63,349 nt of DNA, filler included, from Candidatus Woesearchaeota archaeon (GCA_023266675.1; 8 parts of 8 records of this genome joined end to end with filler, not necessarily neighbours in it), one strand, 5' to 3'; positions 36,405-39,525 are shown, counted from the whole stretch's first letter. Translations and numbers: made by a program. Notes: generated from the sequence alone by a model not told the origin.

Positions 36405-36562
36405 GTTTATAAAATTACTAACTAATAAATTTGTAATGATAATTTTACACCTAAAATAATTANNNNNNNNNNNNNNNNNNNNNNNNNNNNNNNNNNNNNN
36501 NNNNNNTTAATTAATTAANNNNNNNNNNNNNNNNNNNNNNNNNNNNNNNNNNNNNNNNNNNN

Positions 36563-36852
36563 CGGACATTTCCGCTAGGGCTACTCGCGCCTAGATGTCT
36601 AGGTTTCCTGCTTATCCTCGCCATTCCCGCTCTGCGGAGCGGTGGCGAGGGCAGGAGACTGTTTGGGGGAAGGAAGGAATCCTTCCCCCAGCTTCGCCTC
36701 GTCTCGGCAGGGCTCGACCAACCGGCTCAGCCAACCCCCATCCTCGTTTTCATATCGGCTGTATGTGGTGTCGCTTCCGCTTCGGATTTCTGTATTGCAA
36801 GATAACGGCGGCGCTCATCCTTTAGTCATGGACGCCCTAGCGGAAATGTCCG
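36563..36852. other. GC-rich highly structured non-coding element
   Basis: 19-bp perfect terminal inverted repeat (36563-36581 / 36834-36852) enclosing several hairpins. Confidence 0.7.
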
Positions 36853-36938
36853 AGGCTCAAATGCAAATGCGCTTGACCCACCCTCCCGTTCGCGCGCAAG
36901 CGAACATTCTCCCTTCATTATTATTTTTAGTCGGAAGA

Positions 36939-38219
36939 TTATTTTCTGGTTTTCTTTACTTTATTTCTATCTTTTGTGACCTTTAATACTTGTTTTTTAA
37001 TACCATCGTTGCTAATAATTTCTAGTGCCTTTTTGAAATAGTTGTTCCTGTTTTTTGTTTTTTTGGATGTATCCTTTTTCGGATTTCTTCTGATTGGTTT
37101 TATGTTATTTAGCAACTGTTTTTGAGTCTTCTTTATTTGTTTACGTTTTAATTTTTGAATTGTATTTTTTCTTAACAAAATATTTCTTCCACTAAATTCA
37201 AGTCCGAGATAATCAACATAGTCACGACTTTTTCGTTCACCAAGACCGTCTGTAACTTTTTCGCATACCAAGTTTTCATTTACTTTTTTAAAATAGGTTA
37301 TAAAAGATTTGCTAGCGTTAATTCTAAGTTTAGATTCCTTAATCTTACTTTCAATAAATAATAGTAAACTCTCTTTTTGTTCGTCTCTACAAACAAAAAC
37401 TAGGTCATCGCTGTATCTTCTATAAAAGACGTCTGGAAAAGATGTATTTATTTCAAAATCAAAATCTATTAAGTATATATTTGCCAACAATCCACTAACA
37501 GGGCTTCCTTGAGGTATTGCTATATTTGTCCTGTTCTCATGGACAAGTCCTTTTAAAGTATTGTAAATTGCATACTTATTATTTTTTGTTTTCCTTTTTA
37601 TTTTCTTACCAAGAAAATCAGAATGCTCGATATATCTGTGAGCTGTTAATGATCTGAATACTTTATAAAAAGACTCATCAAGCTTTTCTGTATTATTAAC
37701 TTTACAAATCTTTTTCTTTAATAAACTATGGTTTAGATTATCAAAGAAGCCTTCAATGTCTTGAGTTATGACAACACATTCACCTTGCTTTTGTATGTGG
37801 TCAAAAACTTCTTGTGCAAAATGAATATTGCTTTTACCTTTGTTAGTTTCTTCAATTTTAATTTTTCTATAAGCAGTCACATTTCTACTAAGATTTAAAT
37901 TCTCTAGGTATTTCTCATATTTTTCTTGAAGAATAAAATTATAGTAACTATAAATATGGGCATCTATGTGGGACGCGTACATTATCGGTCTTAATTTTAT
38001 TGACCTACGCACTTCACCTTCTTTGTTTTTGCGAAAACGAATTTTAACCTCTTCTCTTTTTATGAAAGGTAAAAATTGATGATTCTTTATATCTTCAATA
38101 ACCTTGACTACTCTTTGAAAGGTTTCCTCGTTATCTAAATCAAGAGCATCATCAATATGCTGATATGTTCTCAGTTTCCTGTCTGGTTTTATTTGGTTTT
38201 TCCACTCTTGATATGTCAT
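36939..38219 (-). CDS. drt2: DRT2 (UG2)-type antiphage reverse transcriptase
   Basis: YQHID, HQFLPFI, KLRPIMYASHIDAHIYSYY, KSNIHFA, DIEGFFDNLNH, IPQGSPVS..LANIYL..FD, YRRYSDD, YLGLEFSG.NILLR; 426 aa with no fused domain. Confidence 0.88.
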   Translation of the reverse strand: MTYQEWKNQIKPDRKLRTYQHIDDALDLDNEETFQRVVKVIEDIKNHQFLPFIKREEVKIRFRKNKEGEVRRSIKLRPIMYASHIDAHIYSYYNFILQEKYEKYLENLNLSRNVTAYRKIKIEETNKGKSNIHFAQEVFDHIQKQGECVVITQDIEGFFDNLNHSLLKKKICKVNNTEKLDESFYKVFRSLTAHRYIEHSDFLGKKIKRKTKNNKYAIYNTLKGLVHENRTNIAIPQGSPVSGLLANIYLIDFDFEINTSFPDVFYRRYSDDLVFVCRDEQKESLLLFIESKIKESKLRINASKSFITYFKKVNENLVCEKVTDGLGERKSRDYVDYLGLEFSGRNILLRKNTIQKLKRKQIKKTQKQLLNNIKPIRRNPKKDTSKKTKNRNNYFKKALEIISNDGIKKQVLKVTKDRNKVKKTRK

Positions 38220-38585
38220 ATAAAACGCAAAGACCTCTTCCTACAAACCGTTGACATGGTTCGATACTTGGAAGAGGTCATTCAACTATGTGTTGGCTTG
38301 TATTATGTGGTCTCGCTTATTTCTAAGCTAAGGTCAACTAAAAACGTGTGTATAATAATTATAAGTCTAATCAATTGCTATAAGCAACAAATTATGATTC
38401 CATTCCTATACAATGTGCTGTTCAACCTGATGGTCAAACATTCTTACGACTGCTTAAGTGCTGTTGCCAGACTCTTGCAAATCGTTGATAACACCGGGAC
38501 TAGCTCATCTGGGAAGAGATAACGGTCAATACAAGCAGAGACCGTTCATGTAGTTGCCCACAATGCCTACTTCTTAAAAGCTAGT
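38220..38585 (-). ncRNA. DRT2-associated template ncRNA (ends approximate)
   Basis: Intergenic region directly 5' of the RT with multiple stems, long-range pairings and its own sigma70-type promoter. Confidence 0.78.
38346..38492 (+). other. Predicted 147-nt cDNA repeat unit encoding a Neo-like 49-aa repeat
   Basis: Only one stop-free frame; TATAAT 38351-38356 precedes TTGCAA 38475-38480; AAC at 38343-45 and 38490-92, exactly 147 nt apart. Confidence 0.68.
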
Positions 38586-38591
38586 AACTAA

Positions 38592-38620
38592 ACACTAGCA
38601 TAAATATGAAAAATTATCAA
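38592..38620 (-). promoter_or_regulatory. sigma70-type promoter for ncRNA-RT
   Basis: Minus strand TTGATA-N17-TAGTGT with TGn extended -10. Confidence 0.6.
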
Positions 38621-38637
38621 TCTATATTTTATAGCTT

Positions 38638-39425
38638 TTATTTACAAACGACATAATGTAAATATTCTAAAGTTTTATTTGAACTAAAGTCTCGATTCTC
38701 GTCTTTGTCTGCTTTAAATCTGTTATATTCTTGAGTAAAATATCCATACTTACCTCGTGAACCCATTATTTCTTTTATATCATCGAGTGTCATGAGGCCT
38801 TCATTATTGTAGCTTAAGAAAATATATTTTTGTTTAGCATTTGATATTAAATCACTAAAAGATTTTTTAACTTTTGTTCGAGAGCAATATAAAGATTTCT
38901 GACTCTCGTATTCTCTCAGCCCTGTTTTTCCGTGAATTTTTGGGTCATCATATTTTGCAATAGTTTCAAGTAAATGATAATTTGTCGCGTACTGTCTTTG
39001 GTTATAAGGTGGGTCAAGATATAAAATATCCCCCTCAATTTTTCCCACAAGTTTATTTATATCTTCATTAAAAACTTCGTGTTCTTGATCATTTATTATT
39101 AACTCTGCTGGCTTTAATACAAACGGCACTTGTGCTGTCTTTTTTAATTGCTTTAAAAATGCACCATAAACTGAAGCTGTGTTAGCTCGTTTATCAATAG
39201 TTTCCAAAAGTGTAGCTAAAAGAAAATAATATTCATTATCTGTAATTAACTTCTCATTTTTCCATTCCTCTATTTTCATTCTGATAGCATCACATCTCAT
39301 TCCATTCTCATCTGAAAAATATTGTCTTTCAAATTCTTGATTCTTTGTTCCACCCGAACAATAGTTTTTGTATATAAATCCTTTTTCTCCTTTTATGTTT
39401 GATAGATAATCGCAAACAAAATCTT
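38638..39425 (-). CDS. N6-adenine DNA methyltransferase (D12 class, M.NlaIII-like), 5' truncated
   Basis: ANTASVYGAFLK, DILYLDPPYNQRQY..NYHLLETI, FLSYNNEG; frame open to the contig edge. Confidence 0.9.
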
Positions 39426-39525
39426 NNNNNNNNNNNNNNNNNNNNNNNNNNNNNNNNNNNNNNNNNNNNTTAATTAATTAANNNNNNNNNNNNNNNNNNN
39501 NNNNNNNNNNNNNNNNNNNNNNNNN

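Follow-up and report, generated by a model that had tools for sequence, protein, structure and literature searches.

A putative neo-type DRT2 locus from Patescibacteria with its own candidate template-jumping repeat

Introduction

The locus described here raises the question of whether a gene that is absent from the chromosome can be laid down in a short RNA template next to a reverse transcriptase (RT) gene of an uncultured lineage. To our knowledge, DRT2/neo is the sole known case of a cell writing a gene that its chromosome lacks, and we know of experimental demonstrations of neo only in Klebsiella-like systems. In Klebsiella DRT2, synthesis is primed by the RNA's own 3' end.

In its available text, Wilkinson et al. 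2024 (PMC12039810) gives the neo template ACA flanks, a promoter spacer of 17 nt and units of 111-129 nt, mostly 117, and compares it to the telomerase RNA template with its alignment region. The available text of Tang et al. 2024 (bioRxiv 10.1101/2024.05.08.593200) describes ACA-1/ACA-2 and a basal stem, and calls the annotation of neo 'more challenging' in divergent clades. We found no paper joining DRT2 with Patescibacteria and, by title or abstract, none on divergent DRT2 jump signals among the 2025-2026 papers listed; the bioRxiv supplements (Tang et al. Table S1, fig. S6) may list this clade.

An earlier note on this DNA had proposed a hidden gene, that is, a 147-nt unit antisense to a structured RNA, whose head-to-tail repetition would create a promoter and an endless frame of 49-residue repeats. 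We analyzed this proposal in the window (the whole stretch of DNA under study, 63,349 nucleotides long) and in related loci, and consider it probable, on the combined analysis, that the locus is a neo-type DRT2 (UG2) anti-phage system of Patescibacteria, comprised of one RT and one upstream structured RNA.

Results

Locus, contig and host

The window joins contigs from a genome of 1.2 Mb in 83 contigs, with runs of N between them. The DRT2 locus lies on a 2863-nt contig (window 36563-39425), which was assigned to a groundwater sample by sequencing-run matches and whose nearest public relatives are Patescibacteria MAGs (Paceibacteria, Nomurabacteria, Saccharibacteria). This contig carries a 426-aa ORF (36939-38219, minus strand), a 420-base gene-free stretch upstream of it, and the C-terminal part of a D12-class adenine methyltransferase (38638-39300, minus strand). 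The latter, a 220-aa ORF, aligns only with positions 102-249 of the 253-position D12 profile, and its N-terminal part seems to be absent or else split close to the end of the contig.

Just downstream of the RT there is a GC-rich block (36563-36935; 57% GC vs. 29% in the RT gene), single-copy in the source genome, in which we found no tRNA and no Rfam match above noise at E up to 10. In run X2, a microbial-mat metagenome with contigs of a relative, the depth of this block is 25-40 times that of the RT gene, and block bases 168-337 show 82% identity to the stretch directly downstream of the RT in the related loci L002/L083. If the block is the repeat of a serine-recombinase element, the DRT2 contig may be cargo of that element, and the contig end probably falls at the repeat. 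The first 19 bases of the contig (36563-36581) are the exact reverse complement of 36834-36852, reflecting either a genuine inverted repeat or a fold-back made in assembly.

The reverse transcriptase

The 426-aa ORF is the reverse transcriptase gene of the locus.

36939..38219, minus strand: DRT2-type reverse transcriptase gene, 426 aa (P0001), identified by PADLOC Drt2, Pfam RVT_1 and the NCBIfam Drt2 best match

Two PADLOC Drt2 models match the protein with E 1.1e-106 (residues 6-423) and 4.7e-76, while the runner-up family, RT_UG39, reaches E 4.7e-22, and Drt9 and RT_UG17 score far weaker than Drt2 (E 1e-17 and 1e-21 vs. 1e-106). Pfam RVT_1 is found as well, the catalytic YxDD region is invariant in 46 homologs, and the public names of the homologs are generic. 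The Drt2 equivalog NF041746 tops the NCBIfam matches with 315.3 bits (E 7e-94), which is below its curated cut-off of 390; hence the protein, assigned by these profiles to the DRT2 (UG2) family, is called a divergent member of it. No Shine-Dalgarno motif was seen by eye before the RT gene.

In a FastTree tree of 152 RTs of the fetched loci (see below; supports SH-like only), the window RT and 16 full-length close relatives form one branch with support 100, separate both from the proteobacterial branch that holds Klebsiella-type DRT2 and from the Bacillota branch. Since the focal group was picked by similarity, the tree shows this separateness and nothing more. With the window RT as a query, no homolog was found in 60 related genomes of the same order, and the system is patchily distributed in its order, as defence genes are.

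The upstream RNA and its expression

Directly upstream of the RT gene, and on the same strand, lies a structured non-coding RNA (ncRNA).

38222..38585, minus strand: DRT2-associated structured ncRNA, largest likely extent (RNA contigs over 38293-38574; covariation)

38592..38620, minus strand: probable ncRNA promoter, TTGATA (38620-38615), 17 nt, TGC-TAGTGT (38600-38592), as read from the sequence and the alignment columns

Four sequencing runs were compared with the contig in all, including two RNA libraries from different studies, X15, which comes from the source sample, and X16. The first of these contains a 278-nt contig, 100% identical to 38297-38574 (depth 40), and the second a contig over 38293-38572 with six differences (depth 4.9). 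In both libraries cover is zero on the RT gene, the methyltransferase and the rest of the 2863-nt contig, and since the flanks are silent, DNA carry-over is unlikely. As the covered RNA is colinear with the genome and extends past the template on both sides, it is the ncRNA rather than a junction transcript. The RNA contigs give neither strand nor true ends, the strand being read from the promoter and the fold. In the aligned columns of the promoter, relatives carry TGnTATAAT-like boxes, and the start of the ncRNA is expected, with probability, near 38585, 11-13 nt before the RNA contigs begin; a consensus promoter scanner made no call at 38592-38620.

The fold of the ncRNA was studied in an alignment of 12 relatives.

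38499..38585, minus strand: 5' domain, closed by helix H1 (38585-38578 with 38506-38499), with two hairpins inside, the second being 38546-38541 with 38526-38521 (alignment)

38528..38535, minus strand: CUUGUAUU, forming the loop of the second hairpin in the 5' domain as well as the 5' arm of a long-range (pseudoknot-type) helix (covariation)

38310..38335, minus strand: hairpin directly 3' of the template (8 pairs, 7 with both-side changes)

38297..38304, minus strand: AAUACAAG, 3' arm of the long-range helix, at which the RNA contigs end (RNA contigs, covariation)

38232..38279, minus strand: long conserved hairpin, followed by U-rich sequence (38231-38222) up to 2 nt from the RT start codon (covariation)

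Taken together, 95% of the alignment cells in the helices are paired, compared with 33-49% in slid controls, and 21 of the 44 pairs have changed on both sides, while shuffles yield 7.5 such pairs and none of 500 shuffles is as high. Helix H1 (8 pairs) is paired in 94% of cells, with both-side changes in 2 pairs; the long-range helix (38535-38528 with 38304-38297, 8 pairs) in 98%, with 4 such pairs; and the hairpin at 38232-38279, which lies outside the RNA contigs, has 16 pairs in two helices, paired in 97-100% of cells, 7 of them with both-side changes. The inner hairpins of the 5' domain were seen by eye in the alignment and left out of these counts. When the longest duplex between the 5' and 3' domains was sought in each sequence, shuffles equalled the observed length in 33-193 of 200 trials; this test is uninformative in such AT-rich RNAs, and the argument for the long-range helix is therefore taken from the aligned covariation only. 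A search of 36500-39500 against Rfam (E up to 1) matched no family, which leaves the ncRNA outside the catalogued models. These data support an ncRNA that is real, structured and expressed.

The hairpin at 38232-38279 is GC-rich and nearly invariant in relatives. Together with the U-run (38222-38279) it looks like a terminator or a processing signal between the ncRNA and the RT, though a scanner called no terminator there. The end of the RNA contigs near 38297 may be a real one, or else an assembly break before a hairpin that is near-identical among related loci.

The relative sampled in run X2 (contigs over 37408-38586) differs from the window in 3 of 199 and 3 of 184 bases of the ncRNA (about 98% identity) and in 47 of 579 positions of the RT gene (92%), so that the ncRNA is better conserved than the enzyme. 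Changes that fall inside the template unit (38365 and 38379; in X16, 38431 and 38450) introduce no stop, as judged by reading the codons by eye.

The template unit in the window

Between the 5' domain and the hairpin at 38310-38335 lies the putative template, whose features are given here on the antisense strand, i.e. in the sense of the proposed cDNA.

38346..38492, plus strand: 147-nt template unit in cDNA/neo sense (the RNA template is its complement), encoding a 49-residue repeat (sequence; homologous units in 19 loci)

38351..38356, plus strand: TATAAT, -10 half of the proposed junction promoter, 5 nt inside the unit (a like hexamer aligned in 20/20 loci)

38475..38480, plus strand: TTGCAA, -35 half of the proposed junction promoter, 12 nt before the unit end (a TTGNNN-type hexamer aligned in 19/20 loci)

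38343..38345, plus strand: AAC (GUU-2 in the RNA), just outside the 3' boundary of the template, proposed landing site of the jump (sequence; register in relatives)

38490..38492, plus strand: AAC (GUU-1 in the RNA), proposed final three bases copied per round (repeat of at least 3 nt at this register in 15/20 loci)

38394..38396, plus strand: in-frame ATG, first ATG after the junction promoter, proposed neo start (Met-17, invariant in the 12-sequence alignment)

All motif positions claimed in the earlier note were verified in the sequence, and the unit translates into the 49 residues given there. On the plus strand of 38200-38620, TATAAT occurs solely at 38351, TTGCAA solely at 38475, and GTGTGT (ACACAC in the RNA sense) only at 38346, the 3' boundary of the template. 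AAC is found 12 times in this span, its copies at 38343 and 38490 lying 147 nt apart, which equals the period. The note's single stop-free frame is likewise present: the plus-strand frame starting at 38220 is open over 38157-38522 (366 nt), and the remaining five frames (two plus, three minus) have many stops. In three in-silico copies of the unit, exactly one frame is open, the joint of 38492 to 38346 leaves a spacer of 12 + 5 = 17 nt, and the frame is kept (147 = 49 x 3), as had been predicted; the ATG codons at 38394 and 38430 are both in this frame. No Shine-Dalgarno motif was seen by eye before the ATG at 38394.

When the interior of the window unit was shuffled with the promoter ends fixed, 7% of the shuffles kept an open frame. 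For the window alone, the case for a design beyond chance is a moderate one, and the 3-nt repeat taken by itself makes a weak one.

The same open frame could belong to an ordinary chromosomal small gene antisense to the RNA and need no reverse transcription, the candidates being the 121-aa ORF at 38157-38522 and a 42-aa ORF from the ATG at 38394. The 366 nt of open plus-strand frame do exist in the genome, and TATAAT does stand upstream of the ATG, but no sigma-70-type promoter is called on the plus strand within 38220-38600, and Pfam has no match for either the unit peptide or the 121-aa ORF. Together with the comparison of relatives, described below, these negative results make such a gene very improbable.

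Conservation of the design among relatives

We fetched 160 loci with relatives of the RT and took the 19 nearest ones, whose proteins are 41-76% identical to the window RT, for analysis along with the window, i.e. 20 loci. A reversed -10/-35 pair is present on the antisense strand in all 20 of these Patescibacteria loci. The distance from -10 to -35 varies from 88 to 148 nt and takes 10 distinct values, and in 20/20 loci this distance plus 23 is divisible by 3, as it is in the window, where the period had been noted to be a multiple of 3. For a 17-nt spacer, the resulting periods are 111, 114, 138, 144, 147, 150, 153, 159, 162 and 171 nt. When each unit is concatenated in silico, exactly one frame stays open, and its phase with respect to the -10 box is shared by all 20 loci.

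For each hexamer we took whichever sequence matched best no further than 8 or 5 nt from its aligned column, and some of them are weak (TAAGAT, TATCAT, TTTACA, TTGTAC). The variants of the -35 box include TTGCAA, TTGCAT, TTGCAC, TTGACT and TTGACA, with TTG kept and the last three bases drifting; the consensus TTGACA is reached in L092 and L004, and L094 has TTTACA. An ATG 48-54 nt into the unit (Met-17) is invariant in 12 of the 12 closest sequences, and at least one in-frame ATG is found in each of the 20 loci. In the window, the ATG at 38394 is the earliest one past the expected start of the transcript.

Shuffled unit interiors keep an open frame in 3-34% of trials, depending on the locus. 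Multiplied over the 20 loci, these probabilities give 2e-21, a value that overstates the significance, because the loci are kin; for the same reason the independent evidence is nearer to 10 length classes than to 20 loci. In the sense-strand control, an open frame was found in 7 of the 20 units. Across relatives, the sequence comparison makes a strong case for a design beyond chance.

The relatives also bear on the small gene discussed above. The open frame exceeds the unit by 9-135 nt on one side and by 3-84 nt on the other, so great a difference among relatives being hard to reconcile with a linear gene, in which, moreover, a conserved -35 box at the 3' end, held in a fixed phase, would have no reason.

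For the family as a whole, with any phase admitted, a unique best reversed promoter pair was obtained on the antisense strand in 81 loci, 63 of which have a period divisible by 3, and on the sense strand in 43 loci, 13 of which do (the pair is ambiguous in 45 and 58 loci, respectively). A strict scan finds the complete design in 88/159 loci, as compared to 14/159 in the sense control and 51/795 among shuffles; it misses several focal loci because of its -35 rule. As a positive control we used enterobacterial loci: L112 and L107 give a unit of 117 nt and L104 one of 105 nt, with one open frame each and with a TGT (ACA) repeat 11 nt before TATAAT, in agreement with the designs of Wilkinson et al. 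and Tang et al. Two further enterobacterial loci have no exact hexamer, and no design was returned for them.

In a sister branch of Patescibacteria (L108, L156), the strict scan flags units of 87 nt (29 codons), with TATCAT and TTGAAG or TTGAAA and an AGA-type repeat 10 nt before the -10 box. These hint at possible, still shorter neo units, and at nothing firmer than a hint, because the false-positive rate of the strict scan is 6-9%.

The repeat peptide

The repeat encoded by the unit had been described as hydrophobic and helix-like, and both properties recur here. The unit repeats of the loci are hydrophobic (GRAVY 0.59-1.27, with 41-57% I/L/V/F/M/C), and AlphaFold2, run with a 12-sequence alignment, predicts one repeat as a single helix spanning residues 2-48 (mean pLDDT 77). 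Foldseek returned no PDB match for this one-helix model. Differences by codon position are weakly periodic (0.45/0.39/0.47), and because this signal is weak, selection on the peptide is claimed no further than for a frame that is open and hydrophobic. Such weak periodicity agrees with what has been published on Neo, in which little is conserved apart from an open frame and hydrophobicity.

The weak codon-position signal is also what one would expect if the cDNA acted untranslated, as in DRT9 or DRT10, with the antisense frame and the promoter halves being by-products of constraints on the RNA. This explanation agrees with the open sense strand in 7/20 units and with the fact that no joint transcript or protein was seen (in assembled contigs). 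Yet constraints on RNA structure do not explain why 10 different lengths are all divisible by 3, nor the phase of the 17-nt spacer in 20/20 loci, nor the invariant ATG. Moreover, the -35 element varies in the manner of a -35 box, TTG being kept while the last three bases drift towards TTGACA. We regard an untranslated product as improbable, and prefer a translated repeat of the neo type.

The jump signal

The earlier note had suggested that in this locus a GUU/AAC signal takes the place of ACA. Indeed, from the 5' handle to the -35 element the RNA of the window is free of ACA, and the published ACA-1/ACA-2 pair is therefore missing. At the register 12 nt after the -35 box and 5 nt before the -10 box, the two sides of the template share a run of at least 3 nt in 15 of the 20 loci and of 2 nt in the other 5. 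The repeat is AAC-like in most loci (GUU in the RNA) and 2-9 nt long. It changes on both sides together, being TAC/TAC in L092 and AAA/AAA in L094 and L004, and its length reaches 5 in L084, L088 and L089, 7 in L082 and 9 in L002/L083, with a sequence that differs per locus. In RNA terms, the start of the template (GUU..., the first 3-9 bases) is repeated just 3' of the template, and we interpret this repeat, from its position and co-variation, as an alignment region in the telomerase sense. The loci thus suggest the same mechanism with a different alignment sequence in this clade.

We hold the exact AAC joint with lower confidence than the neo-type reading itself. The earlier note had allowed the register to shift by up to about 5 nt, and any joint within the spacer yields the same period, promoter and frame, so the rolling-circle mechanism could be the same and the jump not be set by the AAC/GUU triplet: the joint may lie elsewhere in the 17-nt spacer, or a base may be added or lost per round, with stalling at the 5' handle fixing the end point. 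Consistent with this are the 5 loci of 20 that share merely 2 nt at the AAC register and the one extra base per round that the available text of Tang et al. (bioRxiv 10.1101/2024.05.08.593200) gives for Klebsiella. However, the repeat is at least 3 nt long in 15/20 loci, co-varies (TAC/TAC, AAA/AAA) and extends to 5-9 nt with locus-specific sequence, and since the distance plus 23 is already divisible by 3 in all 20 loci, no extra base per round is needed. A joint set by something other than the triplet is therefore unlikely, while deserving more weight than either of the two explanations discussed above, and a jump programmed by the GUU repeat is the reading that we retain.

A different repeat is observed in DRT2 loci of gut Bacillota (Oscillospiraceae, Acutalibacteraceae and others), in which TATAAT/TTGACA are reversed and a repeat starting with CAAT, or AUUG in RNA terms, precedes the -10 box by about 12 nt. 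A scan that left spacer and phase unrestricted found the CAAT repeat in 31 loci, each time combined with a spacer of 17 nt and a period that is a multiple of 3, and in no other combination; the periods of gut Bacillota DRT2 in the strict scan are 132-180 nt. The CAAT-repeat loci of Bacillota include L042, L044, L046, L051, L063-L072, L076, L109, L117, L119, L121-L123, L125, L126, L130, L136, L143, L152, L155 and L024. By sequence, CAAT/AUUG looks like a third clade-specific jump signal.

Proposed mechanism

The observed parts of the system are an RT of the DRT2 family, an RNA that exists, folds and is abundant, and a conserved design of split promoter, frame and repeat. The steps that come after RNA binding are inferred by analogy with Klebsiella DRT2; they comprise rolling-circle copying with its jump, the synthesis of a second strand, transcription and translation, as well as toxicity and the phage trigger. 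The RT would grip the RNA by its 5' and 3' domains, tied together by the long-range helix. The 147-nt template lies between these domains, and its copying would run from the ACACAC end in the direction of the 5' handle. The end of the cDNA, ...AAC, would then leave GUU-1 and anneal to GUU-2, immediately 3' of the template, and copying would restart after this jump, giving head-to-tail 147-nt cDNA repeats. In the double-stranded cDNA, every joint would set TTGCAA 17 nt before TATAAT. A transcript from this junction promoter would reach the conserved ATG (38394) about 30 nt downstream and continue into the stop-free repeat of 49 codons, and the predicted product is a hydrophobic, helical, open-ended protein that would arrest the infected cell.

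Several observations weigh against the neo-type reading. The window repeat is 3 nt only, and 5 of the 20 loci have 2 nt only; on the 3' side of the template the RNA contigs extend for about 50 nt, as opposed to about 133 nt in Klebsiella, which may reflect an assembly break at the conserved hairpin. In addition, the RT score is below the NCBIfam Drt2 cut-off, some promoter halves are weak, the loci are kin, and no Shine-Dalgarno motif was seen. No back-joint or permuted RNA contig was found in the four runs, all of them searched as assembled contigs, which drop rare forms; in the part of the source-sample DNA run X1 that was read, depth over 37811-38962 is zero.

Discussion

The parallel to Neo of Klebsiella DRT2, which the earlier note had drawn, holds both for the RT family match and for the neo-template features, present in 20/20 Patescibacteria loci for all their strong divergence in sequence. 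As in Klebsiella, a single RT gene is preceded, directly upstream and in the same orientation, by an RNA that is structured and pseudoknotted, and the template lies between a 5' handle and a 3' domain. The antisense strand has the -10/-35 halves in reversed order, and joining the units head to tail sets them 17 nt apart; the unit length is a multiple of 3, and a single frame, which contains an ATG, runs through the joined units without a stop. The peptide repeat is hydrophobic and, by prediction here, helical, and a short direct repeat flanks the template.

This kind of system has been known since 2024, and what differs here is the jump sequence, the place of the joint, the longer units, the 5' domain with its long-range helix, and the host lineage. 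The window RT is only about 34% identical to an enterobacterial DRT2 (L112, in the matched part). The jump repeat is GUU (AAC in the cDNA) rather than ACA, and the joint falls 12 nt after the -35 box and 5 nt before the -10 box, while in enterobacterial loci it falls 6 nt after and 11 nt before, respectively. The unit is 147 nt long (111-171 in the clade), compared to 105-129 nt in published systems. The 5' domain is about 90 nt long and has two hairpins, whereas the Klebsiella handle is about 28 nt, and, unlike in Klebsiella DRT2, a long-range helix links a 5' hairpin loop to the 3' domain. Finally, the host is a Patescibacteria MAG, and the system is known here from sequence and RNA contigs alone.

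Like telomerase RNA, the ncRNA repeats a stretch of one template end beyond the other end for re-pairing, of up to 9 nt in L002. The template is 147 nt, as opposed to 4-8 nt in telomerase RNA, and the proposed product is a gene instead of a chromosome end; we do not claim homology between the two. DRT9 and DRT10, class 2 UG RTs, likewise combine an RT with an upstream ncRNA and copy an internal template repetitively (as proposed here), but what they make, as given in the available texts (PMC12483538, PMC12632851), is poly-dA or short tandem repeats that lack a coding design.

Going beyond the window, rolling-circle gene making is a possible common design of the whole DRT2 family, a generalization towards which we lean by a narrow margin. 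Each clade would have its own telomerase-like alignment sequence of 2-9 nt (ACA in Proteobacteria, GUU in Patescibacteria, AUUG in gut Bacillota), at clade-specific places in the spacer. The Patescibacteria version would reside in genomes of about 1 Mb, have its RNA far above the RT message in groundwater, and travel as cargo of serine-recombinase elements. If true, a family-wide design would answer the remark in the available text of Tang et al. that neo annotation is 'more challenging', and would give a simple search rule.

The locus and its 19 relatives would carry the neo logic into a deep, uncultured lineage, with another jump sequence and another RNA scaffold. On this reading, the design requires a split promoter, a period that is a multiple of 3 and a repeat flanking the template, whereas ACA as such is dispensable, and a motif-independent rule is now available for finding hidden genes of the neo type. 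The two metatranscriptomes provide field evidence of the abundance of the ncRNA in situ, and the natural variants, with units of 111-171 nt and alignment repeats of 2-9 nt, are material for studying how the jump may be programmed.
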